Source: a virus. Taken from it: a stretch of DNA of 64,000 nt. The stretch lies in the UHGV virus genome UHGV-1351333; one strand, written 5' to 3'. The notes beneath the pieces are model-generated. The model did no database searches. It was not told the origin of the DNA and saw nothing but the letters and a program-made list of their open reading frames with translations. Of this stretch, positions 5,609 to 44,256 are shown piece by piece (the stretch's first letter is position 1; every line of letters begins with the position of its first letter). The position numbers and the translations under genes are program-made.

Positions 5609-5659
5609 TTCGCCGGTTGTTCTTTACAGGCATTTCCGCGCGTTTATAATTTTAGGCCT

Positions 5660-6208
5660 ATGAAAGACAACATCCTAGTACTATGCCACAGCAACATGCA
5701 TCGCAGCCCGTTCGTCGCGGAATACATCAGAAATTCGGCCTACGGAGACGCTTATGAAGTCCGTGACGCGGGGCTGCATGTCGATAAAGGGCAGCGCGTC
5801 CCCAAGGCCCTTCAACGGGCCTTTCAGACCGTGTCCCACGGAAGCCTGAAAGACCACAAGTCGCGCCAGGTAAGCATCAACGATATTTTGTGGGCTGATA
5901 AAATCATCATCATGGAGCCGGAGAACAAAAGCGACCTGTTGGAAATGCTCGGCAGCATGCACCTGTCGGACAAGCCCCGGTATGACCGGATTGTCGGCAA
6001 GATAACCTCGCTGGCGCAGCTCGGAGGGAAACAGGCCGTGGACGACCCGCACCACTACTCCCCCGGCACGCTGGAATACGGCAAGGTAGTGCTGAATCTT
6101 GCCTATCTGGCGAACTCCCTGGTTGAGCTGTGGGAAACGCAGCGTTCATGGCCTGAAACCGGCAAGGAAGTCGACGCGGAAGCCGCCGCAGGCCCGTTTG
6201 GGTCTTGA
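5660..6208 (+). CDS. low-molecular-weight protein tyrosine phosphatase (Wzb/LMW-PTP family)
   Basis: N-terminal P-loop VLCHSNMHRSPFVAEY matches the C-X5-R(S/T) catalytic signature of LMW-PTP/ArsC-type phosphatases. A DP motif sits near the C-terminus (VDDPHHY). Confidence 0.7.
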   Translation: MKDNILVLCHSNMHRSPFVAEYIRNSAYGDAYEVRDAGLHVDKGQRVPKALQRAFQTVSHGSLKDHKSRQVSINDILWADKIIIMEPENKSDLLEMLGSMHLSDKPRYDRIVGKITSLAQLGGKQAVDDPHHYSPGTLEYGKVVLNLAYLANSLVELWETQRSWPETGKEVDAEAAAGPFGS

Positions 6209-6444
6209 CCTGCCACCCCCCCCCGCATGCTATGGTGCTCTCGGCGCAGGATAACGAGAGCCTCCGATGGAGGTTGATTCAGATGAACGTGATTGTCGTC
6301 TGGTTCTACCTCCTTCGGTTGCGGGATTCCGGAATCTGGAATGACCGCCTGCAACAAAAGCTGGATGACACAGAACTCATTTTTTTAATCATTAAATGGT
6401 ACATGTGGTACATGCCGGTTTTATTCCCTGCCCGATAAAAACCG

Positions 6445-7200
6445 ATGGACGCTTATCTGCTTTACACGCCGGGGGAAATGCTGGAAGGGGAAGACGAGCT
6501 GACCGCCCTGGGCTACCGTGTCCATGCCGTCCTGGGCGATAACGATACGTCCGGCCTGCGCAACACAGTTAAGCGTATTCCCAGCCTGGGCTATTCCCCC
6601 CTGTACCTGTCCGACGGGCTGGGCTATAACTGGTGCGGCCACGTCCATGCGCTCCGCGCCAACTTCGCCTCCATGCTGGAAACCTACATGGACGCGGACG
6701 ACCTTACGCTGTACGGCGAATCGGACTGCGTTCCGGCGCCTTATCCACCGATTTCCGCTGAGGATATTTCCTGCATTTGCCGGGAGGCCGTTTCCCGGCA
6801 TCCGGAAATCGGCATTATCCGGCTGTACCGGCGGGCTACCGTATTCGACGAGCCGCCCTGGTGGAACCACGCCCCGCTGACCCTTCTCCCGCTGAAAAAG
6901 GCGGAGAGAATATCCAATATTCCCTTTACCAAGTATTACTGCCAGACGCACGCCCTGATTATCCGCAGGCATGTCCGGAAAACCGTCATTGACGCTATGC
7001 GGGATTATTACCTGCCCATTGATGTGCTCATATCCTATTTAAGCCAGATTGGGACCGTGCCGGTATGGCATACCAGCATCAATCTGATGCTGCAACGCCC
7101 CCACAGCACCGGACGGCGGCTGACTGAATGGCAGCGCAAACACTCTATTCCGGCGGCGGATTACTGGCGCAGCAAACCCGGATTGACCGGAATGCGGTAA
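6445..7200 (+). CDS. hypothetical protein
   Basis: 251-aa ORF. A glycosyltransferase-like nature cannot be excluded, but no clear motif was seen. Confidence 0.45.
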   Translation: MDAYLLYTPGEMLEGEDELTALGYRVHAVLGDNDTSGLRNTVKRIPSLGYSPLYLSDGLGYNWCGHVHALRANFASMLETYMDADDLTLYGESDCVPAPYPPISAEDISCICREAVSRHPEIGIIRLYRRATVFDEPPWWNHAPLTLLPLKKAERISNIPFTKYYCQTHALIIRRHVRKTVIDAMRDYYLPIDVLISYLSQIGTVPVWHTSINLMLQRPHSTGRRLTEWQRKHSIPAADYWRSKPGLTGMR

Positions 7201-7900: not shown

Positions 7901-8302
7901 ATGGACAAAAAAGAATTAAACGAAATCCTCAAGCTTCACAAAATGTGGATGAACGGGGAAGAAGGCGGCGTGAAAGCCAACCTGTGGCTTAATGACCTGG
8001 GGGGCATGGATTTGAGCGGCATGGATTTGAGGGAGGTTAACCTCTCCCAGGCCAATCTGAGCCATGCCAATCTGAGCGGCGCCAACCTGAGCGGGGTTAA
8101 TTTGTGCGACGCCAGCCTGTACGGGGCTGACTTGAGGGGTGCCAATCTGGAAGGGGCCTGCTTGTACAGGGCCGACCTGACTAAGGCCGACCTTAGCAAC
8201 GCCAACTTGAAAGACGCCAATCTGACTGATGCTGACTTGACCGATGCCGTCACAGACGGCGCGGATTTCACCGGCGCCTCACTTTTCGGGGCGATTCGCT
8301 AA
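7901..8302 (+). CDS. pentapeptide-repeat protein
   Basis: More than 15 tandem A(D/N)L(S/T/R)x pentapeptides: ANLSHANLSGANLSGVNLCDASLYGADLRGANLEGACLYRADLTKADLSNANLKDANLTDADLTD. Confidence 0.8.
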   Translation: MDKKELNEILKLHKMWMNGEEGGVKANLWLNDLGGMDLSGMDLREVNLSQANLSHANLSGANLSGVNLCDASLYGADLRGANLEGACLYRADLTKADLSNANLKDANLTDADLTDAVTDGADFTGASLFGAIR

Positions 8303-8913: not shown

Positions 8914-8942
8914 GTAAACTCTTTTTCTGTTAAATACATTAA

Positions 8943-8977
8943 GGCTATTACGGAAAATCCCGTAATAGCCTTTTTTT
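8943..8977 (+). terminator. rho-independent terminator
   Basis: ggctattacgg-aaaat-ccgtaatagcc is an 11-bp perfect stem followed by TTTTTTT. Confidence 0.7.
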
Positions 8978-8994: not shown

Positions 8995-9186
8995 TTATTT
9001 AACCCCCGCCGCCGCGCCTATGCCCACCAGGACAAGGCCGATAAAGTAAAGGAGGATAATGCCGATATTGATGATAAACATAGCCATTATCATGTTGGAT
9101 ATTTTGCTGCACACCTGTATCAGCCGGTCGAGCTTGCTGACGAGAAGATACGTGTCCTGCGGTTGTAGTCTGATATTTGGTTCCAT
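8995..9186 (-). CDS. small single-pass membrane protein
   Basis: 63-aa minus-strand ORF with a C-terminal hydrophobic helix MIMAMFIINIGIILLYFIGLVLVGIGAAAG. Confidence 0.35.
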   Translation of the reverse strand: MEPNIRLQPQDTYLLVSKLDRLIQVCSKISNMIMAMFIINIGIILLYFIGLVLVGIGAAAGVK

Positions 9187-9788: not shown

Positions 9789-9812
9789 AAATTTGCAATG
9801 ATTGCAAATTTT
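9789..9812. repeat. palindromic motif copy 2
   Basis: aaatttgcaatgattgcaaatttt between 9758 and 9802. Confidence 0.85.
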
Positions 9813-10515
9813 CCTGGGGCGGCCGCAACCATCCATGAGCGTTTTTACTTATCCGGTCGAGGGGCTTCGCCGCGTATTGATTCCGCAGAAATGCGGCTGG
9901 ACGCTTGCCTGGGATTCCATGCACCGCTGGAACGGTCGGGTGTCGATTGACTCCAACGATTACCCGGCGAAAAATCTGGACGCCATGTTCGTCCGGGAAC
10001 CGGTGGCGCGGTTCATGTCCGCTTTCCGGAATAAGATACAATTCGGCTGGAAATCATACCCAAAAGACGCTGACGGGCAGTTCAACAGATATTCCGGAAT
10101 ACAATGGATAGGCCGCGTCTGCGGCATCCACCCGGACCGGGTGCAGGAGTATGTTACCGTGTCCCTGATGCTGGACGTGCTGGAAGACATCATCAAAAAA
10201 AAACCGAAAGCGCCTTTCAGCCATGATATTCTTGACCCGCACTGGTCTCCGCAATCCTGGCATGCCGCGCCGGGCCATATTCCAGGACTGCTTATCGACC
10301 CAAGAAACGATTTTTCCGTCCTGGACAGATTAAAAATTGACTATTCTACGCACAACCATAATAATACAAGCCGTTATGGAGGCTATCAGCCTACGCCGGA
10401 AGAGGTTGCCCGCATCAAGGCCTTGTACGCCTGCGATGTAGAACTTTACGCCCAATACCAGCATGATTACGCCCTTCGCCAGTTATCCGCCCAGCGACGT
10501 TCCGGAGTTCATTAA
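9802..10515 (+). CDS. sulfotransferase-like protein
   Basis: IPQKCGWTLAW resembles the 5'-phosphosulfate-binding PKxGTT loop. VREPVARFMSAF about 50 aa downstream resembles the 3'-phosphate-binding R(D/N)PxxRxxS motif of PAPS-dependent sulfotransferases. Confidence 0.5.
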   Translation: MQIFLGRPQPSMSVFTYPVEGLRRVLIPQKCGWTLAWDSMHRWNGRVSIDSNDYPAKNLDAMFVREPVARFMSAFRNKIQFGWKSYPKDADGQFNRYSGIQWIGRVCGIHPDRVQEYVTVSLMLDVLEDIIKKKPKAPFSHDILDPHWSPQSWHAAPGHIPGLLIDPRNDFSVLDRLKIDYSTHNHNNTSRYGGYQPTPEEVARIKALYACDVELYAQYQHDYALRQLSAQRRSGVH

Positions 10516-11314
10516 ATATTCCCACCACCTGATTGACCTCGCCCTGAGAAAGGCCCGGCGCCCCGCCATTCTTTGTTCCTACGGCAAGGATTCCGGCGTT
10601 GTCCTGCATTTGCTTTCCCAGCACGTCGATTTATCCCATATTGACGTTATTTACATTGATTCCACTTTTGAGTTTCCCGCGTTTTACAAGCACATCGCCG
10701 GGATGAAAGCGTTTTTCGGCATCCGGCACGGCGGCCCCCATGATGTGCGCTGCCAGAACAACCAGGCAATCCGTTCCGGCATGTCTTACGACAACACGCC
10801 GGTATTCAAACTGACCCAGACCCTGAAAACTGACGTCCTCGTCCAGACGCTGAAAGAACGGAACATCGACTTTCTGTTCACTGGCATCCGCCGCGACGAA
10901 GAAGGTTCCAGGGCCAAGGAACGTTATTTTTCCTACAGGGAGGCCGACGGCACATTTGACCCGGTAAGCAACAGGCCCGGATTCTACCCGTTGGATGGGC
11001 TGGATGTCCAGTCCCCCGATTCCGGCCATTACCGCGTTAATATCCTTCTGGGCTGGTCGGAACGGGATGTGTGGGAGTACACGAAAAAATACCTGCTGCC
11101 CGTCTGCCCGCTATACCTTGCCAGGGACGGAAAACGCTACCGCTCCTTAGGGGACGAGCCGGTAACGACCCCGGTCGATTCCGATGCCGACAGCATTGAT
11201 AAAATCATCAGGGAGCTGTATCATACCAGCGTGCCGGAACGGTCGTGCCGGGCGTCACAGGACAATTCCGCGCCGTACGCGATGGAAATGCTGCGGCGCA
11301 AAGGTTTTTGCTAG
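10463..11314 (+). CDS. cysD: sulfate adenylyltransferase subunit 2 (CysD, PAPS-reductase fold)
   Basis: SYGKDSGVVLHLL is the PP-loop. GIRRDEEGSRAKERYFSYRE...DPVSNRPGFY aligns closely with E. coli CysD ARRDEEKSRAKERIYSFRD...DPKNQRPELW. C-terminal AMEMLRRKGF matches CysD GSMELKKRQGYF. Confidence 0.85.
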   Translation: MITPFASYPPSDVPEFIKYSHHLIDLALRKARRPAILCSYGKDSGVVLHLLSQHVDLSHIDVIYIDSTFEFPAFYKHIAGMKAFFGIRHGGPHDVRCQNNQAIRSGMSYDNTPVFKLTQTLKTDVLVQTLKERNIDFLFTGIRRDEEGSRAKERYFSYREADGTFDPVSNRPGFYPLDGLDVQSPDSGHYRVNILLGWSERDVWEYTKKYLLPVCPLYLARDGKRYRSLGDEPVTTPVDSDADSIDKIIRELYHTSVPERSCRASQDNSAPYAMEMLRRKGFC

Positions 11315-11341
11315 CCATTTCATTTTTCTTCCTTTTTTCTC

Positions 11342-12067
11342 ATGTCGCAGGATGACCCGTTTGCCCAGCCGCCGGAAGAGGAACCCTGTAGGCCGGGAGG
11401 CGTCACGCAAATCTGGATAGGCGGGGAACATACCATACCGCGGGAAATGCGGGAATGGATGGCCGGGGTACGGGCCTACTGTAGCCGGTTCGACCTTCCG
11501 TACCGCTGTTTGAACGGGAGGCAATGCAAGGCTTTGCTGGCCGAGTTCGGCATTCCGTTTAATGAGACCGGGGGCATCATGTCCCTGACCGACATGGCGC
11601 GGGTCTGCGCCCTGAAAAAATGGGGCGGCTGGTACCTGGACACGGATGTGAAAATCCAATGCCCGGCGGCCTTTCACGACTGGTCGGCTTCCGTTTGCGA
11701 ACGGGAGCCTTCAACCGTGTTTTATAACGCCATCACTTTCGGCTGGATGTACAATCACGGGGTGCTTTACGCCTCCGGGGACGATTCCTGCCTGTTCCTT
11801 ACCGCAATGTTGGACGCGTGCAGAAAAACCTACGGGACAGTGCATGCCTCCGATTCCGGGTGGGGGCTGGAAAGCACCGTCCAGAATATGGTGCATTATG
11901 ACCGTCAATGGGTAGGCTGGCATCAGGGCCTGCCAAAGCGCGTTTGCGATTCCGGCAATCCGACAAGCATGATTAACCATGTGCTTTACGGCACCTGGTA
12001 CGACAGCTCGCACATGGTTCCCGGCATCAAGGACGCGGAGACGTATTCACGGGTTTCCGATTTGTAG
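11342..12067 (+). CDS. glycosyltransferase, GT32-like (DxD sugar-binding region)
   Basis: KKWGGWYLDTDV matches the GT32/Och1-type GG(I/W)Y(L/I)D(T/L)D motif. Confidence 0.55.
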   Translation: MSQDDPFAQPPEEEPCRPGGVTQIWIGGEHTIPREMREWMAGVRAYCSRFDLPYRCLNGRQCKALLAEFGIPFNETGGIMSLTDMARVCALKKWGGWYLDTDVKIQCPAAFHDWSASVCEREPSTVFYNAITFGWMYNHGVLYASGDDSCLFLTAMLDACRKTYGTVHASDSGWGLESTVQNMVHYDRQWVGWHQGLPKRVCDSGNPTSMINHVLYGTWYDSSHMVPGIKDAETYSRVSDL

Positions 12068-12116
12068 CCCAAAATAATTTTTTACAAAAATAAAAAACGG
12101 CGATAGCATAGGCGCC

Positions 12117-12968
12117 ATGCCACGCGAAAAAATCATCATTGCCGTGTGCGGCATTCCTGATACCGGAAAAAGCACCTTTATCGTCAATGCGGCGAAACAC
12201 TTAAATGGCATGGAAGTCCAGCCGGACGCCCTGTGCGTCGAGCAGCAGACCGGGAAAACCATTGCAACCTCGTTCATCACCACCTGGGGCGAACAATGGG
12301 AGCGGGACGGGAAAACCTGCGATCTGGTTTTTGTGGACTGTCCCGGCCACATGCAGTTCCTTCCGGAAATCGTCGCCGGGTTGGCCGCGGCCCATGCCTA
12401 TATTGTCATTCATGACGCTTCCCGCATTGAGGCGAGCAAGGCCTATGCCCGGATGCTGAATGGCATTGCGGGCATGCTTGGCGTGCCGGAACTCGCGGAG
12501 CTTTACAGCCATTGCGACGATACCGGCGAATGCTGCTACAATGTGGGGATTGACAACCGGCTTCCGGGAATCGCCGAAAGAATCATCAAGCGTGCCCTGG
12601 CGGGAGGCAGGGATAAGCTGGTCCATCCCACGGCGTCCTGGCTTGGCTACATCCGGCAGGAACCGTCCGACACGCCGGATGTACGGCATAAAGTGTCCGT
12701 TGTCTGGCTTCCCTCCGCTTCCCGGCTCACTCCGGTTTCCAGGCTTCAGGCGAGGCTTCCTGACAGAACGGTCGAACTTGGGGCGGCGGAATCCGTAATC
12801 GGTTCCATTCCCGGCGAAAAAGACTTTCAGGGCGCCCCGGTGCAGCAAATCAATCTGAACTTTCCCGTCCGGTATCTGGACCCCGTGCGCTGCCTGATTT
12901 ACAGTCCGGAGCTTGGAACGGTCGGAGTCGGAACAGTAAACACATGGAAAACTCAGGCGCTATGGTAA
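12117..12968 (+). CDS. EF-Tu/CysN-like GTPase domain (candidate sulfate adenylyltransferase subunit 1 partner)
   Basis: G1 AVCGIPDTGKST and G3 VDCPGH, as in EF-Tu and CysN (DTPGH). Only the G-domain is present (283 aa) and the G4 NKxD looks degenerate. Location between cysD and cysC supports the assignment. Confidence 0.55.
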   Translation: MPREKIIIAVCGIPDTGKSTFIVNAAKHLNGMEVQPDALCVEQQTGKTIATSFITTWGEQWERDGKTCDLVFVDCPGHMQFLPEIVAGLAAAHAYIVIHDASRIEASKAYARMLNGIAGMLGVPELAELYSHCDDTGECCYNVGIDNRLPGIAERIIKRALAGGRDKLVHPTASWLGYIRQEPSDTPDVRHKVSVVWLPSASRLTPVSRLQARLPDRTVELGAAESVIGSIPGEKDFQGAPVQQINLNFPVRYLDPVRCLIYSPELGTVGVGTVNTWKTQALW

Positions 12969-13174
12969 ATATGCCTATCTCCCGCGACTGTCCTTTTTGC
13001 GGAAAAAATCTGTGCTACAGCACCGGAAAGGACGGCTGCTATTATTCCTGCCCGTCGTGCAGGTATTCCGTCCAGTCCGGGGCGACTGAAAAACAGGCGC
13101 TCGACCACCTTTCCGCATTTATGGCGGCTGTCCGTGAAAAACAGGACGCTCAACACGATAACATCATCCAATGA
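12965..13174 (+). CDS. zinc-ribbon protein
   Basis: CPFCGKNLCYSTGKDGCYYSCPSCRY has two CxxC pairs. ATG at 12965 is in the ORF-track frame 12944..13174. Confidence 0.35.
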   Translation, partial: VNMPISRDCPFCGKNLCYSTGKDGCYYSCPSCRYSVQSGATEKQALDHLSAFMAAVREKQDAQHDNIIQ

Positions 13175-13674
13175 TTATTCTTCTCACCGGTGAAAGCGGC
13201 GTCGGAAAAACGTCTGTGGCGAAAACCCTGATGAATCGGCATCCGGGCATCCTTCTTGACGGAGACGACATGCGGGACGGGTTAAACAGCGACCTTGGAT
13301 TTTCCGACAGGGACATCATGGAGAACATGCGCCGGACGGCGCATATAGCCATGCTGCTGCATGACCAGCTGCCGGATGACCGGCGCGTGGTCTATATCAC
13401 CTGCATCGCCCCGCTGCTGGCCGGGCGCAATCTGGTGCACGAATTATGCGGCCTCCGGCTGTGGGAAATCCGCCTCCAATACGATTACCGGGCTTCCGAC
13501 GACGTAAAGGGGCTGTACAAGGCGGGAACGCCCATGCGGGCTTATGAGGACTATCCCAGCGAGGCGTTGTTGCTCTCCCGCCGGATAAATCGTGTTTACC
13601 GGTATTATAACGATACCGTATGGGCGCTGGCGGCCAGGATAGAAGAGCTGTGGCCCGCGGACAAAACCGCTTGA
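13171..13674 (+). CDS. cysC: adenylylsulfate (APS) kinase
   Basis: P-loop TGESGVGKTS. LDGDDMRDGLNSDLGFSDRDIMENMRR is near-identical in pattern to E. coli CysC [34 protein letters not shown] matches CysC KGLYKKA. Confidence 0.85.
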   Translation: MIILLTGESGVGKTSVAKTLMNRHPGILLDGDDMRDGLNSDLGFSDRDIMENMRRTAHIAMLLHDQLPDDRRVVYITCIAPLLAGRNLVHELCGLRLWEIRLQYDYRASDDVKGLYKAGTPMRAYEDYPSEALLLSRRINRVYRYYNDTVWALAARIEELWPADKTA

Positions 13675-13741
13675 CAAAAACGCGTCCAACCCTGTATATT
13701 GCCCCTGTTTTGGAGCATTTCTAACAGGATGTTTCTGGTTT

Positions 13742-13781
13742 CTCCCTCCCCTTGGCGCTCTAGGGGGAGGGAGTTTTTTTT
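13742..13781 (+). terminator. rho-independent terminator closing the sulfation operon
   Basis: ctccctcccc-ttggcgctcta-gggggaggga, followed by TTTTTTTT. Confidence 0.7.
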
Positions 13782-16745: not shown

Positions 16746-16790
16746 GCCGTCCGTGGTTAAGTCTGTTTGACTAGGCACGGGCGGTTTTTT
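16746..16790 (+). terminator. rho-independent terminator after groES
   Basis: gccgtccgtg...cacgggcgg imperfect stem followed by TTTTTT. Confidence 0.5.
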
Positions 16791-16820
16791 ATATTAAAAG
16801 GCAGCGTAAGCTTTCGCGAT

Positions 16821-17837
16821 ATGACCAATACTTCAAACGCCCCAAAGATTGCCGCCCTGATGTCGTCCTACAAGCGGCCAGCCGACCTCGTAAAACAGAT
16901 TCTGACATTGCTCCACCAGACCTACGACTGCCATATTTTCGTTGCGGTGAAGGGTTTGTCCGAACGGGACGTAAATACCTGCATCCGGCCGCTTTTCGCG
17001 GAAGAAATCAATGCAGGGAAGCTTCATTTATCGTATTACCCGAACAAAAGCCAGTTCAACAACATTCTCGACTGCTACCGGGGTTTTGACATCGGACAAT
17101 ATGATTTGTACTGCAAAATTGACGATGACGACATTTACTTTCCGACCTATCTTGAGGATGTCGCGAAATCCGCCGTCAGCACCAGAAAGACGGACGGGAC
17201 ATATTGCGGTTCCTGGCTCTCCGGCGGCGATTGCCTGATTGCGCAGAAATCAAACCAGAACGGCGTATTCTTTGACCGCGTTCCGGCAAACAACTTCCAC
17301 ATGTTCGGAAACACCCTCTGCATGTCGCGGGAAGACTTGCGGCAGCTTTACGCCATTGAGGCTAACCCGTCCCTGCTCACCCCGGAACGCTACCCGTTCA
17401 TGAACTCGTGGCACGTCGTGCTGGCCGGATTCGTCGAAGACGCGCTGATTCACCGGCTTATCCAGGCTAACGGGGGCGTTAACCGCTACGACGTACTGGC
17501 GGCGGGCAATCCGGATTCCTCCGTGCGCCCGCAGCTCATCACCGTCAACTACGGGGCGAGCGTCGTCAGGGGCGGCCTGTACCAAAATGAGTTCTACCAG
17601 AAAAACGCCCGCCTTGGGCAGATGGAACAGGAGTGGACCGTATGCCTGTATCACCCGGATTGGGGAAGCAGGAAATACAGGACATTCCGCCTGTTTAACG
17701 GCAGGGCCACCGATTTGCACAATATCGACCATGCCGGTTACAGGGAGTTTGACGGCGACACGCTGGTGCTCAAGTGGGACAAATGGGGCACGGAAACATT
17801 TGTCCGGAATGCCGAAGGCGTGTACTGCCTGAAATAG
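16821..17837 (+). CDS. glycosyltransferase, GT2-like
   Basis: N-terminus IAALMSSYKRPADLVKQILTLLHQTY resembles the GT2 signature VsVIiPtyNr...l.SllnQty. DxD-like CKIDDDDIYFP. ATG at 16821 in ORF-track frame 16767..17837. Confidence 0.5.
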   Translation: MTNTSNAPKIAALMSSYKRPADLVKQILTLLHQTYDCHIFVAVKGLSERDVNTCIRPLFAEEINAGKLHLSYYPNKSQFNNILDCYRGFDIGQYDLYCKIDDDDIYFPTYLEDVAKSAVSTRKTDGTYCGSWLSGGDCLIAQKSNQNGVFFDRVPANNFHMFGNTLCMSREDLRQLYAIEANPSLLTPERYPFMNSWHVVLAGFVEDALIHRLIQANGGVNRYDVLAAGNPDSSVRPQLITVNYGASVVRGGLYQNEFYQKNARLGQMEQEWTVCLYHPDWGSRKYRTFRLFNGRATDLHNIDHAGYREFDGDTLVLKWDKWGTETFVRNAEGVYCLK

Positions 17838-20021: not shown

Positions 20022-22262
20022 ATGCCGCCCATACGCACCGCAACATTCAGGAAAGCTTCCCCGGCTCTGCTTTTCAAATCGTACAGACAGTCCAAAGTTC
20101 CGGAAGGCGGTTGGACGCAGGAAAACTTTTATACGGAAAACGGTGTCCGGCTGGTGCAGGACTGGGTAAAAATGAATCGTTCCGCGACAACAAAAAACGC
20201 CAGAATGCTTGCCCGGACGTTAAAAGCCCTGATTGAAAGAATACTCTACGAAATCGCCGACCGCATGGAGGACATCGCGGAGTTGTCCGAAAAAAAGCAG
20301 GTATACGCGTACCAGCGGAAGAATACCGTGTTGTCCGGGGTTTGGGGCAATGTCATCAGCGAAGTTTTGCGCGACTTCTCCGGGGACGTGCAGGAGGCCG
20401 TGCAGCCTTACATGCAAAGCACGGCGGACGACGTTGTGGACAAGGGGCGGCAGTTGCTGGGGTCGTCCGTAACCAGGACGGACACCACGACCATTACCAA
20501 TTCGGTGCGCCAGGCCGCCAGAGAGATAACCAGCGTGCCGGCCACAATCCGGGACAAAATCAACCGCATCATCCAGCGGGAATATGATAAAGGGTCCTCG
20601 GTGTTCGATACGATTGCCGCCGTGCGCCGTCAGACCCCGTCACTGGCCGCCGGCCGCATAGCCACGATTGTCCGCACCGAACTTGGGCGGGCCGCGGATA
20701 TTGCCAATATCCAGGCGGCCATGGAAGGGACCTGCACGCACATGTCGGTTATCGGGTGCGAAACCATTGAACGCACCTACACCTACCGGGGTTTGCCGAC
20801 GTGCAACATCCAAAATGTGCCAATCAACGAATGCATGAACGTCCGGTTCCATCCGAACCATACCGGCTGCTGGGTTCCGTCGGCGTTCAGGCAGTCGGAC
20901 GGCTCGGTTCCGGAGCTGGACCCCCGCAGCAATTCCGGCCACGGCACTTTTGAAACGCAGCAGGAAAACCCGGAAGGAAACAGCGCCCCGTTCCTGAATC
21001 CAAGACCGGCTCCCGGCCCGGAAATGGAAAACCCGGTAACGCTCGCTCCTACGCCGGAACCGCCTCCGGCTCCTATAGATATTCTTCCCCAGGGTTCATC
21101 ATCGCCGGTACTGCCGACCACCCCGGAAAACTGCGGGGCGCCGGTCGTAGGAAGGCCGCTTCCGTCAGGAAGGCCGCCGAAAAATGTAATTGATTTTGAC
21201 GCGCTTCCGGCATCCTACCAGGACACGGAAGAAGTGCGCCATGCCGTTGAGGTGATTCGCAGCCGCGCCAGTTCGGTAACAAGATTCGTTGCGGACGATA
21301 AGGACATTTATGACTTTTTCCGGACGGTCGGAGTTCTTCCGGACGCTATGGAATCCCTTTTGCTCCAGGACATCCCCCTTAATCTGGCGGATTCGATGGA
21401 ACTGGTTATTCGCGCCGGACGCACTTTTGACTGCATCGGCAGCGTAGGCGGAAAACAGTCATTTTTGTATCGGCGCACGATATGCGTAGATGAACAAGGC
21501 CGTCTGTACATCCACCACAACGATTTTGAAATATGGGCGGAGTACCAGGGGAACGGGTACGCGAGAAAACTGCTGCAAAACCAGATTAACTTTTACGATG
21601 CTATCGAGGCCAATTACATCACGATGGCGGCCAACATTGACGTAGGCGCTTACGCCTGGGCCAGATACGGATTTTATCTGACTGACGACGGCGCGGAGGC
21701 ATTGACAAGGCAGCTGCGGCGGGGCTGGAACCGGATAATCACTAAAGATTTGGCTCCGGCCAATCCGACGGACAAGGAAGCGTTTGACGCGTCAATAGCC
21801 CGCTTGGAGCGGATTGTTGAAAAAAACCCGATGGAACCCAAAGACCTTTGGGCTATCGCGTCCGAACACATCAAAGTACGCACCCCGGGGGGCCAGGAAC
21901 GGAAGCTGGGGTATCATGTGCTGTCCGGAACCTACTACAACGCCCGGCTGGACTTGAACGACCCGGAACAGTACGCGCGGCTGGTATCGTACATCAACCA
22001 CAATCCCACAATTAACAAAGGGCGGGAATTGTATTCCGTCGTTGACGGACGCCGCCGGGACGCGCTGCTGCACGCGGAGTTTCTTTCCAGCGTATGGGGA
22101 AACTTCCGGGCAGACTTCGCCGGGGTGGAACAGGCCATACGTTCCGGCTGCCCGGAAGACGAGGCGCTGTGGCTTTACGCGTCTCCGGAATCCGTGGCGC
22201 TTATGGCCCCGCAGTTGCCGCAAGAACTGTACACCCGTTATTTGTCATTGCTTAACCGATGA
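20022..22262 (+). CDS. MuF-like head morphogenesis protein with a ~430-aa C-terminal extension (GNAT-like motif)
   Basis: The N-terminal half (e.g. SVPATIRDKINRIIQREYDKGSSVFD...GRIATIVRTELGRAADIANIQAA) resembles Phage_Mu_F. A Pro-rich linker (PAPGPEMENPVTLAPTPEPPPAP) follows. The C-terminal domain carries WAEYQGNGYARKLL, consistent with a GNAT Q/RxxGxG/A acetyl-CoA motif. Confidence 0.65.
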   Translation: MPPIRTATFRKASPALLFKSYRQSKVPEGGWTQENFYTENGVRLVQDWVKMNRSATTKNARMLARTLKALIERILYEIADRMEDIAELSEKKQVYAYQRKNTVLSGVWGNVISEVLRDFSGDVQEAVQPYMQSTADDVVDKGRQLLGSSVTRTDTTTITNSVRQAAREITSVPATIRDKINRIIQREYDKGSSVFDTIAAVRRQTPSLAAGRIATIVRTELGRAADIANIQAAMEGTCTHMSVIGCETIERTYTYRGLPTCNIQNVPINECMNVRFHPNHTGCWVPSAFRQSDGSVPELDPRSNSGHGTFETQQENPEGNSAPFLNPRPAPGPEMENPVTLAPTPEPPPAPIDILPQGSSSPVLPTTPENCGAPVVGRPLPSGRPPKNVIDFDALPASYQDTEEVRHAVEVIRSRASSVTRFVADDKDIYDFFRTVGVLPDAMESLLLQDIPLNLADSMELVIRAGRTFDCIGSVGGKQSFLYRRTICVDEQGRLYIHHNDFEIWAEYQGNGYARKLLQNQINFYDAIEANYITMAANIDVGAYAWARYGFYLTDDGAEALTRQLRRGWNRIITKDLAPANPTDKEAFDASIARLERIVEKNPMEPKDLWAIASEHIKVRTPGGQERKLGYHVLSGTYYNARLDLNDPEQYARLVSYINHNPTINKGRELYSVVDGRRRDALLHAEFLSSVWGNFRADFAGVEQAIRSGCPEDEALWLYASPESVALMAPQLPQELYTRYLSLLNR

Positions 22263-22975
22263 ACTTTGTCTGGCTTAACAACCAATTCGGCAACCAGCTA
22301 TGGCAGATTGCCGTCGCGACGTTTTTTTTTGGCCGGGGAAACTTCGCCGCAATAACTTCCTATGCCGTGCCGCTGAAAGGAATCGGTTTCCATGCGTTCC
22401 TGCATGTGCCCTGCTTCCCGTTCAACCGGGAGACGAGCGCCTTAGCGCCGCAAACGGTTTACGTCAAAAGAGGAACGCCCCTGCCTCCCGGCACGAACTC
22501 TATCATTGACGGGCAGTTGCAGGACGTAGCCTGGCTGCGCGGATTGAATATCCAGCAACTATTGACGTTTGACGGCATCGATAACGATTTTCGCATTGTC
22601 CATGTCCGGGGCGGCGATTACTTTACCAGCAAATCGCACAAGCCCTACGTCAAAAACCGAGACTGGTATCTTAAAGCCATTGCCGCTGTTCCTGATATGC
22701 GGAAGCATCAGGACAAAATAATCCTGTGCACGAATGATGGAAAATATGCGAAAAAAATCCTTCCTGAATTTCCTATACTGGACGTGCCGCCCTTGACTGC
22801 GTTCCGCCTGATGATGGGTTGCCGCTCCCTGGTAATATCCGCGTCGTCCTTTAGCTGGTGGGCCGGGTATCTAAATCCGTCAGCGCAGATTGCCGCCCCT
22901 TCCCGGTGGTGCGGCGCCGGAGAGGATTCGGCGAAATATTACGGACATAGCCGCTTGATGTTCATACCTGATTAA
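22259..22975 (+). CDS. glycosyltransferase, GT11-like (alpha-1,2-fucosyltransferase family)
   Basis: N-terminal FGNQLWQIA (GT11 motif GNQmFqyA) and IVHVRGGDY (GT11 motif H(V/I)RRGDY). Confidence 0.55.
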   Translation: MNFVWLNNQFGNQLWQIAVATFFFGRGNFAAITSYAVPLKGIGFHAFLHVPCFPFNRETSALAPQTVYVKRGTPLPPGTNSIIDGQLQDVAWLRGLNIQQLLTFDGIDNDFRIVHVRGGDYFTSKSHKPYVKNRDWYLKAIAAVPDMRKHQDKIILCTNDGKYAKKILPEFPILDVPPLTAFRLMMGCRSLVISASSFSWWAGYLNPSAQIAAPSRWCGAGEDSAKYYGHSRLMFIPD

Positions 22976-42070: not shown

Positions 42071-42092
42071 AAATTTGCAATCGTTGCAAATT
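42071..42092. repeat. palindromic motif copy 9
   Basis: aaatttgcaatcgttgcaaatt between the minus-strand cassette and GT25 gene 1. Confidence 0.85.
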
Positions 42093-42143
42093 CCGAAAAT
42101 CAATATTGCTCCTAAAAAATCAAGCAATTATATTGGCAAAGAC

Positions 42144-43196
42144 ATGATAACCTTAAACCATCTTGGAATATCCCACGCGGTCATCATTGCCTTGCCGGAA
42201 CGCGCTGAACACGTCGCCCGCCTGAAAAACTCCATGGCCTCCGGGGGCATTGACCCGGAAAACAGCGTTACCCTGCTTCCCGCCTGGAACGGTCGAGAGC
42301 TGTTTCCTCCGAAAAGCTGGAAAGGGACCCGCGGCGCCTGGGGCTGTGTGCAGTCCCATATCCGGGCCTTGCGGCTTGCGGTTAAAAATAATTGGGAGTC
42401 AGTGCTCATCCTAGAGGATGACGCCCTGTTTTGCCGCAACGCCGCCGCCAGATTGCAGACGCTTTTTTCCGCGCTGCCGAAAGACTGGCGCCTGCTCTAT
42501 CTCGGAGGGCATCACCAAAACTGGCCGAAGGAGGTCCACGCGGATTATATCCTGGCCTCCGGCATGACGGCCACTCATGCTTATATCGTCAAACGGGAAT
42601 CTATCCCGTGGCTTATTAAGCACATCGCCTATTATCCCGACTACGAACAGCAGCAATGGGGAGTTGACCAGCAAATCCGGAACGCCGTTTACCGGGGCGA
42701 CATCCTCCAATACGCCCCGCGCTGGAATATCGTAGGACAGCAGCGGCAGGAATACAGCACCATTGCCCATTCCAGGGCCGGGAACCGGGAGCGCTGGTGG
42801 GAGCATTCTCAAAATGACCAGTTCCGCCTGCTTCCGCTTCTGCTGCTGCGGGAGCCGCTAACCGTGGAGGACGTTGACGGGCTTGAGGAACTGGTGGACG
42901 TCGCCCCCGAAAAAAGCGTCGAATGCCTTTTGGAGAAAACAGAAGATATGGCCGGCGCCATCATTGAGGCGCTTTCCTGCAGCGCGCGGGGGGCATTCAG
43001 CCATCGGCGCGTCCCTGCCCTGTACTATACTGACCGTAAAGCCGCGGACAGGTGCGCCCGCCTATGGTCCGCGGAATGCCTGTTTGCTGATGTTGACGAT
43101 TCCGAACAAACCAGGAAATCGCTTATTGCCGCCCTGCGCCGCATTGTCGACTATGCGGAAAATCCGGACATGAACCCGGACGTGAACAATGATTAA
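42144..43196 (+). CDS. glycosyltransferase, GT25-like (LPS/LOS glycosyltransferase family)
   Basis: GAWGCVQSHIRAL and VLILEDDALF match the GT25 signatures G(E/A)xGC(F/L)LSH and (I/L)LEDD. ATG 42144 preferred, because the ORF-track start (TTG 42075) lies inside the palindromic motif. Confidence 0.6.
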   Translation: MITLNHLGISHAVIIALPERAEHVARLKNSMASGGIDPENSVTLLPAWNGRELFPPKSWKGTRGAWGCVQSHIRALRLAVKNNWESVLILEDDALFCRNAAARLQTLFSALPKDWRLLYLGGHHQNWPKEVHADYILASGMTATHAYIVKRESIPWLIKHIAYYPDYEQQQWGVDQQIRNAVYRGDILQYAPRWNIVGQQRQEYSTIAHSRAGNRERWWEHSQNDQFRLLPLLLLREPLTVEDVDGLEELVDVAPEKSVECLLEKTEDMAGAIIEALSCSARGAFSHRRVPALYYTDRKAADRCARLWSAECLFADVDDSEQTRKSLIAALRRIVDYAENPDMNPDVNND

Positions 43197-44256
43197 CTTT
43201 CTTCGCTACACTGCTATGGATTATTTATTTCCGCATTATTTCGACCGGATTGTCGTCATCAACCTTACTAAAAACCCCGAACGGTTTGCCCGCATTGCCG
43301 ATGAATTGAAGTATAAATGCCTGGCGGGGCCTGATGATATTGTCAGGCATGAAGCCGTGCACGGGGATTCCATGCCGCATCCGGCGTGGTACAGGGCCGG
43401 AAACGGGGCGTGGGGGTGCTTGTCCAGCCATATCGAGGCGCTGGAAGACGCCTGGAACACCGGAAGCGAGCACACGCTGATTATCGAGGACGATGCCGTA
43501 TTCGCCAATGACCTTTTGACGCGGTTCCCGGAAACCATGAAGGAAGTTCCGAAAGAATACGGGCAGTTGTACCTTGGGGGACAGCACCAGCAGGCCCCGG
43601 AGGCCCTCAGCGATACTTTGTGGCGCGGCACGTCTGTCAATCGGACGCATTGCTACGCCGTTACCCGGAAGTTCATTCCGGAGATTCTCGCCCATATCAT
43701 GGATTGGGATACCCATATCAAGGCTGCCGGAAACCCGCTCCACATCGACCACACGCTGGAAATCGGGCATCAGCGCAGATACTGGCCCGTATTTTGCCCC
43801 CGGTTCTGGTTTGCCGGTCAGGGGGAAAACCAATCTGACATCAACGGCAGGCCCCAGCGGGAAATGTGGTGGGAGTACTCCGTGAAACAACAGCATTTAG
43901 AGCTTCCTTTGCTTGTGTTACGGACCGCCGACATGCCGGAACACGTTAAAGACCTGGCGTTTGTCGGCTGGCCGTCGGATTTGGACGCCCGCGGCGTCAA
44001 CAGGAAAATCGAAGAGGCTAAAAAAGACAAGGCTACCCTGTTGCGGGAAATCAGCTGGCTGGCGTATGTAGGATTCCAGCACCACAGCCTTCCGGCGGTT
44101 TATCTTCCGGAGCCGGAACCGGTTTCCGCATTGCAGCGCCTGTGGTCCGGTGAGGTTATCGACACGGCGCATGCGGATGATGCGGATATCCACCGGATGC
44201 GCCGCATCCTGGAATTCGCCGATAATCCGGAAATGCTGAAATATAGATTCCGGTAG
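43189..44256 (+). CDS. glycosyltransferase, GT25-like (paralogue of 42144..43196)
   Basis: GAWGCLSSHIEAL and TLIIEDDAVF. Aligns along its length with the upstream paralogue. Confidence 0.6.
   Translation: MINFLRYTAMDYLFPHYFDRIVVINLTKNPERFARIADELKYKCLAGPDDIVRHEAVHGDSMPHPAWYRAGNGAWGCLSSHIEALEDAWNTGSEHTLIIEDDAVFANDLLTRFPETMKEVPKEYGQLYLGGQHQQAPEALSDTLWRGTSVNRTHCYAVTRKFIPEILAHIMDWDTHIKAAGNPLHIDHTLEIGHQRRYWPVFCPRFWFAGQGENQSDINGRPQREMWWEYSVKQQHLELPLLVLRTADMPEHVKDLAFVGWPSDLDARGVNRKIEEAKKDKATLLREISWLAYVGFQHHSLPAVYLPEPEPVSALQRLWSGEVIDTAHADDADIHRMRRILEFADNPEMLKYRFR

Follow-up and report, generated by a model that had tools for sequence, protein, structure and literature searches.

The window, a 64,000-nucleotide stretch of viral DNA, belongs to a tailed phage: it encodes a portal, a prohead protease, a major capsid protein, a tape-measure protein, DnaB and PolA. 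From 9835 to 13674 its plus strand carries a tight six-gene operon encoding, in order, a sulfotransferase (ST), a CysD homologue, a putative DXD glycosyltransferase, an EF-Tu-like GTPase (mini-G), a zinc-ribbon protein and an APS kinase (Table 1). All six open reading frames lie on the plus strand, and every motif quoted in the initial annotation was found in their translations. Neighboring genes overlap by 53, 25 or 4 nt or are separated by gaps of 27 and 49 nt, a spacing that fits a single operon, so the uninterrupted transcription unit first described at this locus stands. Its proposed boundaries stand in part. The terminator at the 3' end is real, but the palindrome upstream of the ST gene is not specific to the operon: the motif has 13 intergenic copies across the genome (up to 3 mismatches; shuffles expect 0), this one included, and is probably a transcription-unit signal. 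Eight independent contigs of the same phage (82-92 kb), labelled human gut metagenome, carry the identical six genes in identical order, and all six are under purifying selection (dN/dS 0.05-0.33 with dS of about 0.5-0.7, against the relative L001). The arrangement is therefore not a product of chance.

Table 1. Features of the operon and candidate accessory glycosyltransferase genes elsewhere in the window
Feature	Coordinates	Strand	Length (aa)	dN/dS	Remarks
Palindrome	9789..9811	.			AAATTTGCAAT-G-ATTGCAAATTT; ends 24 nt upstream of the ST start codon
Predicted PAPS-dependent sulfotransferase, carbohydrate (HNK-1/CHST-like) family PF03567	9835..10515	+	226	0.19	Length from ATG 9835
CysD-type ATP sulfurylase catalytic subunit (PP-loop ATP pyrophosphatase)	10463..11314	+	283	0.054	
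Putative DXD glycosyltransferase (GT32/Gly_transf_sug-like; weak assignment)	11342..12067	+	241	0.15	
Mini-G protein, putative functional CysN replacement	12117..12968	+	283	0.17	
Small C4 zinc-ribbon protein	12944..13174	+	76	0.33	25-nt overlap with the 3' end of the GTPase gene, in another frame
APS kinase (CysC-type)	13171..13674	+	167	0.084	Start overlaps the zinc-ribbon stop (ATGA)
Intrinsic terminator	13742..13781	+			14-bp stem with 9 G-C pairs, 4-nt loop, then T8; closes the operon
Candidate accessory GT-A (GT2/SpsA-like) glycosyltransferase, weak assignment	16767..17837	+			DDDD motif; directly upstream of the portal gene
Candidate accessory GT11 (alpha-1,2-fucosyltransferase family) glycosyltransferase	22259..22975	+			Pfam Glyco_transf_11 1.4e-11, 44.7 bits (GA 23.9)
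Two tandem candidate accessory GT25-family glycosyltransferases	42075-43196, 43189-44256 (42075..44256)	+			Between tail and lysis genes

Both steps that activate sulfate to PAPS had been assigned to this operon, an assignment made to depend on profile matches of the proteins starting at 10463 and 13171, and both proteins matched. The first, with the motifs SYGKDSG and GIRRDEEGSRAKERYFSYRE...NRPGFY, scores 99.2 bits against Pfam PAPS_reduct and 168 bits (2e-49) against the NCBIfam CysD model PRK05253, whose curated cutoff is 195; CysD models rank far above PAPS-reductase models, which reach 66 bits. The alignment with Pseudomonas syringae CysD (1ZUN_A, 4e-28) runs from end to end, the CysD-specific C-terminus included; identity to named CysD proteins is about 40%, and SxGKDS, GIRRDExGxRxKER and RxRSxG are invariant. 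The second, with LDGDDMRDGLNSDLGFSDRD and KGLYKAG, matches Pfam APS_kinase (2.5e-19, 70.3 bits; gathering score, GA, 21.1); its best solved relative is the Mycobacterium tuberculosis CysC domain 4RFV (1.5e-13), and human PAPSS kinase domains are matched as well. Since both score below the NCBIfam curated equivalog or subfamily cutoffs, they are divergent members of their families.

A PP-loop protein of this kind could also point to nucleic-acid modification, either a Dnd/Ssp-like insertion of sulfur or a hypermodified base, both sulfated and glycosylated, that counters restriction. PAPS-reductase-fold proteins are known in DNA phosphorothioation and BREX, the phage protein matches BrxP locally, over the PP-loop, at 23 bits, phages do glycosylate DNA bases, and a separate ParB_N and PAPS_reduct/DUF3440 pair occurs in the second of the phage lineages described below. 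We nevertheless regard this reading as very improbable: the protein resembles CysD over its whole length, DndC and SspD gave no match, the six proteins match defense or modification systems only at P-loop or PP-loop stretches, and no hydroxymethylase or base-modification gene was found among the window proteins scanned. To our knowledge, sulfated DNA has never been described.

The description of the first gene product as sulfotransferase-like is borne out by a match to Pfam Sulfotransfer_2 above the gathering score (3e-9, 37.8 bits; GA 22) and by the motifs PQKCGWT and REPVARFMS. The longer patterns P-x-K-C-G-W-T (5'-PSB-like) and R-E-P-V-A-R-F-x-S-x-F-R-N-K (3'-PB-like) are invariant in the sulfotransferases of two phage lineages. 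The gene had been started at TTG 9802, where its longest open reading frame begins, but homologues are called at 221-227 aa and the start is most likely ATG 9835. Sequence searches found no solved relative, and an AF2 model built from a shallow alignment reached a pLDDT of 41.

Between the CysD and CysC homologues lies the GTPase, mini-G. The initial annotation saw in it a bare G-domain; it consists instead of an EF-Tu-superfamily G-domain (about residues 1-165, with GIPDTGKST and DCPGH) followed by about 115 residues of lineage-specific C-terminal sequence, and AF2 modeled the two parts with pLDDT 70-90 and below 50, respectively. It matches Pfam GTP_EFTU (4e-11, 43.2 bits; GA 26.5), its fit to the CysN model TIGR02034 is no better than E=0.06, and Foldseek ranked EF-Tu 1st and CysN 34th. 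Being as distant from CysN as from EF-Tu or EF4, or more so, mini-G is not CysN itself. The NKxD guanine-specificity motif is absent from the family, which may therefore use a nucleotide other than GTP. The family is very rare, with 34 matches in 1.84 billion representatives, G::CysD fusions among them. At every locus of the CysD clade represented in the window phage, the mini-G gene adjoins CysD, and in other phages mini-G is naturally fused to the N-terminus of CysD (P0138, P0140, P0146, P0147, P0148 and P0150). Because the family is rare, always beside this CysD clade, fused to CysD and not CysN-like, the comparative evidence strongly supports the earlier suggestion of a novel minimal CysN partner.

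The two remaining operon genes are less easily classified. The zinc-ribbon protein has weak zinc-ribbon and Lar-like matches (20 bits, below GA) and is kept in relatives; in contig L045 a single-A insertion joins it in frame to the GTPase. The DXD glycosyltransferase is present in 8 of 8 relatives and confined to the lineage of the window phage. Its match to Pfam Gly_transf_sug (4e-4, 21.3 bits; GA 23) covers only the DXD region (residues 80-106, WGGWYLDTDV), and PDB searches reached no better than E of about 1, to the DXD region of TcdA. The gene and its DXD region are thus as first described, but the GT32 label, resting on a score below GA, is weak.

The ST/CysD/mini-G/APS-kinase module is shared by four or more unrelated phage lineages, turns up in hundreds of metagenomic contigs that lack annotation, and is kept despite unrelated flanks and very different G+C contents. 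The window phage and its relatives (53% G+C) have the full six-gene set. In the second lineage (100-141 kb; 30-38% G+C), ST, CysD, mini-G and APS kinase are adjoined by a CTP_transf_3 cytidylyltransferase, and the cassette contains no glycosyltransferase. The third, a Gp23-capsid phage (L019, 36.5% G+C), has GT2, ST, a G::CysD fusion, GT11 and APS kinase, while the fourth (L041-43, 120-196 kb; 31% G+C) has a G::CysD fusion, APS kinase, an ST-like gene and one 248-aa gene, followed by a tail fiber. The module had been put forward as unusual and undescribed in phages. In 50,697 annotated GenBank phage records there was neither a CysD of the window-phage type nor a DNA match, and the phrases "phage sulfotransferase" and "viral sulfotransferase" occur in no paper of the literature searched. 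Comparable operons in annotated phages, which would have overturned the novelty claim, were thus not found, but with its recurrence in at least four lineages the module is not unique to the window phage.

Viral cysD, cysN and cysC have already been catalogued, most viral cysD coming from human-associated samples, and were read as auxiliary genes of assimilatory sulfate reduction (bioRxiv 10.1101/2021.01.05.425418). What appears new, against the GenBank records and literature searched, is the phage module that joins PAPS synthesis to a sulfotransferase. On the published reading, PAPS would feed the PAPS reductase and sulfite reductase of the host and yield more cysteine and methionine during infection, and that pathway does begin with CysD and then CysC. 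For this operon we find it improbable. In each of the four phage lineages a sulfotransferase is co-transcribed with, or lies beside, the genes of sulfate activation, the catalogue nowhere mentions sulfotransferases, and the window and the flanks examined yielded neither CysH nor a sulfite reductase. The downstream reductive enzymes are also missing in some likely Akkermansia host lineages (PMC8262928), in which PAPS would have no reductive sink.

Akkermansia is probably the host of this uncultured human-gut phage. The closest non-phage CysD, at 57% identity, is WP_417003213.1 of Akkermansia sp. A mini-G search of 185,579 species genomes returned 1 locus, in an Akkermansiaceae MAG (54.8% G+C), and Akkermansiaceae chromosomes carry a related cluster of GT11, ST-like, CysD and mini-G genes. 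Sulfate-assimilation genes are absent from Akkermansia phylogroups AmII and AmIV (PMC8262928).

With both PAPS-forming steps and a carbohydrate-family sulfotransferase in one operon, the idea of a self-contained sulfation cassette holds at the level of predicted activity, and we consider phage-encoded PAPS synthesis followed by sulfotransfer to carbohydrate likely. First, the CysD homologue would adenylylate sulfate (ATP + SO4 -> APS + PPi), an uphill reaction driven and gated by nucleoside triphosphate hydrolysis on the adjacent mini-G, standing in for CysN. The CysC homologue would then phosphorylate APS to PAPS, from which the Sulfotransfer_2 enzyme would move the sulfo group to a sugar hydroxyl. 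The acceptor sugar would be part of a glycan that phage glycosyltransferases (the in-operon DXD enzyme and the GT11, GT2-like and two GT25 enzymes encoded elsewhere) assemble or lengthen. The phage would carry the whole pathway because its likely hosts often lack sulfate activation, and could in that case sulfate a sugar-containing molecule without host help. Neither a sulfate transporter nor a PAP phosphatase was identified.

A glycan acceptor is suggested by PF03567 being a carbohydrate family, by the glycosyltransferases interleaved in the cassettes of two lineages (GT2 and GT11 in L019, the DXD enzyme in the window phage) and by the recurrence of GT11 alongside the module in the window phage, L019 and the Akkermansiaceae cluster. 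The same features make it unlikely that the enzyme sulfonates a small molecule or lipid (a sterol, hydroxy fatty acid or signaling molecule) and so alters host-microbe signaling or membrane properties. Among the PAPS-dependent SULTs of gut bacteria, BtSULT does act on cholesterol and ErSULT on hydroxy fatty acids (PMC13449962), but the phage enzyme matches PF03567 and not the cytosolic SULT families.

All enzymes of the carbohydrate-sulfation pathway are predicted to be soluble and cytoplasmic, and the acceptor must therefore be reachable in the infected cell's cytoplasm. If the pathway operates as proposed, a host envelope glycan (an LPS, capsule or EPS precursor) is a reasonable candidate at somewhat less than even chances, and its sulfation could mask a receptor or convert the serotype. 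More tentatively, and compatible with the same pathway, the sulfated glycan may be put on the phage's own virion proteins before assembly, which takes place in the same compartment; a mucin-like fucosylated, sulfated coat could then aid mucus retention, shielding from proteases and immunity, or host recognition. Three of five glycosyltransferase-like genes lie in the structural block (GT2-like before the portal, GT11, and the GT25 pair after the tail genes), the L019 cassette is less than 2 kb from the Gp23 capsid gene, and that of L041 is one 248-aa gene upstream of the tail fiber, although gene position in phages is weak evidence. A candidate site is the poly-Ser linker of the tail protein at 37900-40350, where about 25 serines in a row precede a BACON domain; in the other lineages, the limited flanking sequence showed no Ser-rich protein. 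Glycosylation of virions by mycobacteriophage-encoded glycosyltransferases is an accepted precedent (cited in a passage of PMC11256854). Against a virion acceptor, the related Akkermansiaceae chromosomal cluster cannot serve a virion, and GT25 enzymes, CTP_transf_3 enzymes and an LMW-PTP typically belong to LPS or capsule pathways. An acceptor of neither kind has a similarly minor share of the probability.

The accessory glycosyltransferases differ in how firmly they can be assigned. The GT11 gene lies within the head-gene block, flanked by the genes for head morphogenesis and the prohead protease; its homologues include the GT11 genes of the L019 cassette and of the Akkermansiaceae cluster. 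The GT25 pair scores 36.1 and 29.7 bits against Pfam Glyco_transf_25 (GA 24). The GT2-like protein aligns with SpsA (1H7L) at E=0.13, over the N-terminal region up to and including the DXD motif; it matches Galactosyl_T at 0.054, and its C-terminus matches a GT6-containing protein encoded on L002, an Akkermansia-like contig (2.5e-8).

The window belongs to a tailed phage, whose genes were named with PHROG and Pfam profiles (see the table below). An 83,101-bp contig carries a GTPase gene identical to that of the window, and the relatives of this phage are contigs of 82-92 kb labelled human gut metagenome, so that the whole genome probably spans ~83-92 kb. No cultured relative is available for comparison, since GenBank phage DNA held no match to the cassette (blastn) or to 25 kb taken from the replication region (megablast), and the relatives of the portal protein reach 28% identity or less. 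Between 9.8 and 13.8 kb lie six + strand ORFs packed as a single transcription unit, and the hairpin and T-run that close it bear out the initial annotation, which had described one operon with a strong terminator. Comparison with their counterparts in the IMG/VR relative L001 (dS ~0.5-0.7) shows purifying selection on each of the six genes.

Features of the phage genome and of the sulfation cassette (dN/dS against L001; empty cells, nothing recorded)
Feature	Position	Strand	dN/dS	Remarks
Tail-fibre-like gene	3206-5608
Low-molecular-weight phosphotyrosine phosphatase homologue	5660-6208	+		LMWPc, 31.5 bits; just past tail-fibre-like gene
Palindrome AAATTTGCAAT-G-ATTGCAAATTT	9789-9811			Precedes unit
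Sulfotransferase (ST)	9835-10515	+	0.19	Longest ORF from TTG 9802; first ORF of unit
CysD	10463-11314	+	0.054	53-nt overlap with ST
DXD glycosyltransferase (GT; probable)	11342-12067	+	0.15	27-nt gap after CysD
GTPase	12117-12968	+	0.17	49-nt gap after GT
Zn-ribbon	12944-13174	+	0.33	25-nt overlap with GTPase
APS kinase	13171-13674	+	0.084	4-nt overlap (ATGA) with Zn-ribbon
Terminator	13742-13781	+		14-bp G+C-rich hairpin, then T8; closes unit
GT2/SpsA-like gene	16767-17837	+		Weak match
Portal	17919-19307			PHROG/Pfam profile
Head-morphogenesis protein	20022-22262			PHROG/Pfam profile
GT11-family (fucosyltransferase family) gene	22259-22975	+		44.7 bits; between head-morphogenesis and prohead-protease genes
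Prohead protease	25553-26368			PHROG/Pfam profile
Major capsid protein	27212-28870			PHROG/Pfam profile
Tape measure	33871-37041			PHROG/Pfam profile
Large distal tail protein	37900-40350	+		Uninterrupted run of ~25 serines (residues ~540-570), directly followed by BACON domain (563-654)
Two tandem GT25-family genes	42075-43196, 43189-44256	+		Between tail genes and lysozyme-like gene
Lysozyme-like gene	45936-46628
DnaB-like helicase	52026-53297			PHROG/Pfam profile
Family-A DNA polymerase	53315-56146			PHROG/Pfam profile
RNase H	57561-58280			PHROG/Pfam profile
SF2 helicase	61475-62920			PHROG/Pfam profile
Palindrome copies (each 23 nt), starts	3095, 9789, 15952, 19992, 22990, 27036, 33056, 37053, 42071, 46887, 56164, 58295, 63472

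The palindrome ahead of the unit had been noted as bounding the operon. The motif, AAATTTGCAAT[G/C]ATTGCAAATTT, occurs 13 times in the window against 0 copies expected by chance, nearly always between genes, 10-30 nt past a stop codon and 8-180 nt ahead of the next + strand gene. With 13 copies genome-wide, an operator specific to the cassette was rejected. It has the appearance of a phage-specific signal, be it a promoter, an operator or an RNA hairpin, that delimits the structural, replication and cassette transcription units.

The PP-loop protein of the unit, first named a CysD from its motifs, was recovered by the corresponding profiles. Its match to PAPS_reduct (Pfam) is 99 bits, and it scores 168, 142 and 132 bits against CysD models compared with 66 bits or less against CysH models. 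The alignment with named CysD proteins shows the core motifs SYGKDS and GIRRDEEGSRAKERYFS without variation. Moreover, Pseudomonas syringae CysD (1ZUN_A) aligns over residues 20-282, the CysD-specific C-terminal segment included. The protein can therefore be assigned, from its sequence, as a CysD rather than a PAPS reductase. It is a divergent branch of the family, as its scores fall under the curated NCBIfam cutoffs (PRK05253, 168.4 against 195; TIGR02039, 132.4 against 396.6); its identity to source-named CysD proteins is ~40%, with all catalytic motifs invariant. Public records carry automatic names for the phage protein, "sulfate adenylyltransferase subunit 2" in JGI/IMG and "phosphoadenosine-phosphosulfate reductase" in DAI54141.1 (Caudoviricetes sp. 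TPA). The predicted APS kinase encoded by the last gene was recovered too, with 70.3 bits against a Pfam gathering score (GA) of 21.1 for APS_kinase, and its alignment to 4RFV shows the substrate motif LDGD..R..L..DLGFS..DR.EN.RR. Among solved structures, the best matches are the Mycobacterium tuberculosis CysC domain and the kinase domains of human PAPS synthases; the TIGR00455 equivalog cutoff of 138.7 is not reached, the score being 63.9.

The protein standing in the place of CysN is of another kind. The GTP_EFTU profile matches residues 6-102 of the window GTPase at 43 bits, above GA, and the motifs GIPDTGKST (G1), ..GKTI.. (switch-I) and DCPGH (G3 with its catalytic His) are invariant across the family, here called mini-G. 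The AF2 model places the G-domain at ~residues 1-165 (pLDDT 70-90), and G-domain matches are confined to these residues of the 283-aa protein. The last ~115 residues are lineage-specific; AF2 confidence there is below 50 and Foldseek alignments have an rmsd above 13 Å. With this extension the window protein is more than the bare G-domain it had been called, a description that does hold for its fused relatives. Mini-G was also weighed as a CysN/NodQ proper, and rejected on both the defining architecture and the sequence signature. It lacks the three-domain EF-1A/EF-Tu-like architecture of CysN (~430 aa or more), and against the CysN model TIGR02034 it scores 12.4 bits (E=0.06) where the cutoff is 336. 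In PDB searches by sequence and by profile, EF4/LepA, EF-Tu and EF-1A came at or above CysN (1ZUN_B), and with the AF2 model Foldseek ranked EF-Tu first (3.5e-8) and CysN 34th. Since architecture and signature both fail, the cassette is not a strict CysDN system. In all mini-G members the G4 motif NKxD is replaced by S-H-(S/C/A) at the end of strand beta5, without a conserved Asp; in the same data set, the canonical CysN that lies beside a classical viral CysD at locus L016 retains NKLD. From this motif, mini-G may not be specific for GTP.

The mini-G family is rare. A word-indexed protein search returned near-identical phage proteins only, and the wider relatives came from an exhaustive HMMER scan, which found 34 at E <= 1e-3 among 1.84 billion representative proteins. 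A scan of 185,579 species genomes (one genome per prokaryotic species), made with a 6-sequence GTPase alignment, yielded one locus, in an Akkermansiaceae MAG. As separate proteins the relatives are 234-259 aa long and encoded directly downstream of this CysD clade. In the fused form, a G-domain of ~170-190 aa is N-terminal to CysD in proteins of 392-450 aa (P0138, P0140, P0146-P0148, P0150, and the products of phage loci L019, at 5419-6771, and L041-43). Wherever this CysD clade occurs, mini-G is its neighbour, and 8 or more proteins or loci have the two fused. Because of the gene fusion and the invariable adjacency, there is strong comparative support for mini-G and CysD working as a unit, like CysN with CysD. 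The suggestion of a minimal CysN partner has accordingly gained ground.

The first ORF had been read as a sulfotransferase. It matches Sulfotransfer_2 (PF03567), the family of HNK-1/chondroitin/heparan-type carbohydrate sulfotransferases, at 37.8 bits against a GA of 22, which upholds that reading; its homologue in a second phage lineage scores 36.6 bits. Although the two are only ~28% identical, PxKCGWT and R(E/H)PVxRxxSxxxNK are invariant between them. By eye, and from knowledge of the family, we take PxKCGWT and the second motif, in its cross-lineage form REPVARFMSAFRNK, to be the 5'-phosphosulfate and 3'-phosphate (PAPS) sites. A word-indexed search with ST returned near-identical phage proteins only, and a sequence search for a solved relative found none. 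AF2, given a shallow alignment of 7 near-identical sequences, produced a model with a mean pLDDT of 40.9. At the Pfam level, then, the cassette is assigned a CysD, an APS kinase and a Sulfotransfer_2 family member.

The other two proteins are less clear. The glycosyltransferase had been called GT32-type. Its match to Gly_transf_sug (GT32) is confined to the DXD region (residues 80-106) and stays below GA (21.3 against 23 bits), and its PDB matches have E values of 0.2 or worse. What stands is a probable GT-A DXD enzyme, and the family name does not. The Zn-ribbon protein gave weak zinc-ribbon and Lar-like matches. In L045, an 83.6-kb relative, one extra A at ~7828 (window ~12943) joins the GTPase and Zn-ribbon ORFs in frame into 352 aa. 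This is either a natural fusion, which would hint at joint action of the two proteins, or an assembly error in a homopolymer.

The module is found in at least four unrelated phage lineages. In the first, that of the window phage (82-92 kb, 53% G+C), the full six-gene order is kept in 8/8 independent contigs. The second (100-141 kb, 30-38% G+C) has ST, CysD, mini-G and APS kinase, adjoined by a cytidylyltransferase of the CTP_transf_3 (CMP-Kdo/CMP-nonulosonate synthetase) family; these phages also encode an intein-containing terminase, a BACON protein, an SSB and a dUTPase. The third (L019; T4-like Gp23 capsid, 36.5% G+C) combines GT2, Sulfotransfer_2, the G::CysD fusion, GT11 and APS kinase, and the fourth (L041-43; 120-196 kb, 31% G+C) the G::CysD fusion, APS kinase, a Sulfotransfer_2-like gene, a 248-aa gene and a tail fibre. 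Outside the module, no similarity to the window phage was detectable in the flanks at hand except for the GT11 homologue. Throughout, the activation genes are always accompanied by a sulfotransferase and often by glycosyltransferases, and no reductive enzyme (CysH or sulfite reductase) turned up in the window and flanks examined. This association argues for sulfate-ester synthesis on carbohydrate and not for sulfur assimilation, and we regard a role of the cassette as an assimilatory AMG as very unlikely. Annotated GenBank phages hold none with this CysD, in keeping with the novelty that had been claimed. The module had also been thought very unusual in a phage and undescribed; it appears undescribed indeed, and being widespread in gut phages it is not unique.

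In the second lineage, the large terminase gene is broken by a LAGLIDADG intein. These phages also carry a separate ParB_N and PAPS_reduct/DUF3440 pair. The positions recorded for these two features are 16292-17919 in L009-L011 and 1551-4796 in L005 and L008, all on the - strand.

How does the module compare with known systems? As in the CysD/CysN + CysC systems of E. coli, P. syringae (1ZUN) and M. tuberculosis (CysDNC), a translation-factor-superfamily G protein lies beside CysD and a CysC-type kinase follows; the phage CysD is alignable full-length to 1ZUN_A and retains the PP-loop, RRDE..RAKER and C-terminal motifs. The phage G protein is, however, 234-283 aa long (~170-190 aa when fused) rather than the ~430-475 aa of CysN, is without recognisable EF-Tu domains II and III or NKxD, and resembles CysN no more than it does EF-Tu/EF4. 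Furthermore, the phage-type fusion has mini-G N-terminal to CysD whereas the known fusion is CysN::CysC, and the phage module is tied to a sulfotransferase and not to CysH/IJ. Dedicated sulfation clusters are found in bacteria, among them the rhizobial NodP/NodQ/NodH genes (Nod-factor), Xanthomonas RaxP/RaxQ/RaxST and mycobacterial CysDNC with Stf. With these clusters the phage module shares its logic, a private PAPS supply and a sulfotransferase consuming it, so that a product is sulfated independently of sulfur assimilation. These systems and the gut SULTs have full-length CysN/NodQ, are chromosomal or plasmid-borne in bacteria, and employ other sulfotransferase families on lipo-chitooligosaccharide, peptide tyrosine, trehalose or sterols. 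A part for ST in small-molecule sulfonation is unlikely given its carbohydrate sulfotransferase family. We know of no dedicated sulfation cluster of this kind from a phage. The gut SULTs in question are BtSULT and ErSULT (PMC13449962).

Viral cysD, cysN and cysC genes have been catalogued from metagenomes, with cysD mostly in human-associated viromes, and were read singly, as assimilatory sulfate reduction (Kieft et al., bioRxiv 10.1101/2021.01.05.425418). The word "sulfotransferase" has 0 occurrences in that survey, and the linked glycosyltransferases and mini-G go unmentioned (Kieft et al., bioRxiv 10.1101/2021.01.05.425418). The conserved sulfotransferase linkage in the module lineages points to sulfate-ester synthesis, against the reading of such AMG surveys; if true, viral cysD and cysC genes scored as sulfur assimilation need re-reading as sulfation genes. 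In a literature search that covered a minority of subscription journals, no paper with any form of "phage or viral sulfotransferase" was found. Judged by its genes, the cassette would thus be new as a sulfation module that is self-contained, carried by phages, widespread among those of the gut and equipped with a minimal G protein for CysN.

The closest relatives outside phages point to a host. The nearest non-phage CysD proteins, at 57% identity, include WP_417003213.1 (Akkermansia sp.). In eleven Akkermansiaceae loci (L002, L007, L036, L052-L059), of which L036 is the MAG JAJQCV010000098, a GT11-domain protein, an ST-like protein of ~300 aa, CysD and mini-G form a cluster, on bacterial contigs of 130-375 kb from the human gut with mostly ~51-57% G+C (L007, 62.5%). 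The likeness to the phage extends to CysD (55-59% identical), mini-G (~40%), the CysD-to-mini-G order, the linked GT11 and, for most loci, a base composition around the 53% of the phage. Unlike the phage module, the cluster is without APS kinase, DXD glycosyltransferase and Zn-ribbon, and its ST-like protein resembles the phage enzyme only marginally: hhalign gave E=0.0018 and a probability of 15%, with EPVxRF and C-terminal motifs in common, which is suggestive of a relationship. We infer from these comparisons that the window phage probably infects Akkermansia(ceae) and that the module has been exchanged with that clade. The bacterial cluster is apparently undescribed as well; going by its genes, some Akkermansia may themselves make a product that is fucosylated and sulfated. 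Phylogroups AmII and AmIV of Akkermansia are without sulfate-assimilation genes, the activation steps included (PMC8262928). This lack would explain the need of the phage to bring the PAPS pathway in full, with the APS kinase that is absent from the bacterial cluster.

Taking the gene content together, we consider it probable that CysD, mini-G and CysC supply PAPS with which ST sulfates a sugar of a glycan assembled by phage glycosyltransferases. First, CysD with mini-G would convert sulfate to APS. APS would then be phosphorylated to PAPS by CysC, and ST would finally sulfate a sugar hydroxyl of a glycan put together in the cytoplasm. An alternative purpose, DNA modification, seems extremely improbable, as PADLOC returned no Dnd/Ssp-type match. 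A Dnd/Ssp/BREX-type role was likewise rejected, its defence profiles giving local P-loop and PP-loop matches only.

If PAPS synthesis and sulfotransfer to carbohydrate are granted, the acceptor may be sought in the host envelope or in the virion. Sulfation of a host envelope glycan precursor, for receptor masking or serotype conversion, is a reasonable possibility that falls somewhat short of an even chance. It is favoured by the homologous cluster in a bacterial chromosome, by the GT25 and cytidylyltransferase genes, typical LPS/capsule families, by the Wzb-like phosphatase and by the tail-fibre genes that adjoin the cassette. GT25 itself is the LPS/collagen galactosyltransferase family, and the LMWPc family (Wzb) controls capsule and EPS polymerisation in bacteria; from that family role, the phosphatase homologue may interfere with host polysaccharide export. 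Temperate phages are known for seroconversion cassettes, such as gtrABC and O-acetyltransferases. Like these and mycobacteriophage virion glycosylation, the phage enzymes would decorate a host-surface or virion glycan, and genes of phage glycan-modifying modules are commonly near tail-fibre or structural genes. The enzymes of those systems, however, add sugars or acetyl from host-supplied donors, and none is known to bring its own donor biosynthesis or to add sulfate.

A virion glycoprotein as acceptor is a more tentative proposal. In its favour, glycosyltransferases are set within the structural block, the L019 cassette adjoins the capsid gene, and the distal tail protein joins a serine run to a BACON domain, a glycan/mucin-binding domain, which makes it a candidate for O-glycosylation and sulfation. 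The window GT11 is homologous to those of the L019 cassette and of the Akkermansiaceae cluster. No Ser/Thr-rich acceptor proteins were found in the 12-20 kb flanks of the other lineages. Mycobacteriophage virion glycosylation offers a precedent, among the work cited in PMC11256854.

The fullest reading we would offer, and one we hold with considerable doubt, is that tailed phages of the human gut run a complete sulfation pathway of their own, the first known from a bacterial virus. In it, a minimal NTPase class (G-domain only, without NKxD, perhaps not GTP-specific and sometimes CysD-fused) would replace CysN, and a mucin-like sulfated glycan, made with phage fucosyl- and other glycosyltransferases, would be displayed on the virion (e.g., on the poly-Ser/BACON tail protein) or on the surface of infected Akkermansia. 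Mucin structure, the access of bacteria to mucus and recognition between host and microbe all depend strongly on sulfation. With its own PAPS supply and sulfotransferase, a phage would add a new modification to the cell-surface and virion changes directed by phages, and the apparent host of these phages, Akkermansia, is of medical interest. If true, phages write the very sulfated-glycan code governing life in the mucus layer. In addition, the mini-G/CysD pair and its single-chain fusions would be a small system for the coupling of NTP hydrolysis to ATP sulfurylase, and could give a compact PAPS-regeneration module for biotechnology; all six cassette proteins are small and soluble.

Two features upstream of the cassette deserve mention. 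A perfect 13-14 bp hairpin at 8941-8972, bordered by runs of A and of T on both strands, resembles a bidirectional terminator. It parts the genes upstream of it from the block leading to the cassette and from a small ORF on the minus strand (8995-9186). Further upstream, 7901-8302 (+) encodes a 133-aa protein made up nearly entirely of pentapeptide repeats A(N/D)LSx, as seen by eye in the translation only; the pentapeptide-repeat fold is often a DNA mimic (Qnr/MfpA-like).
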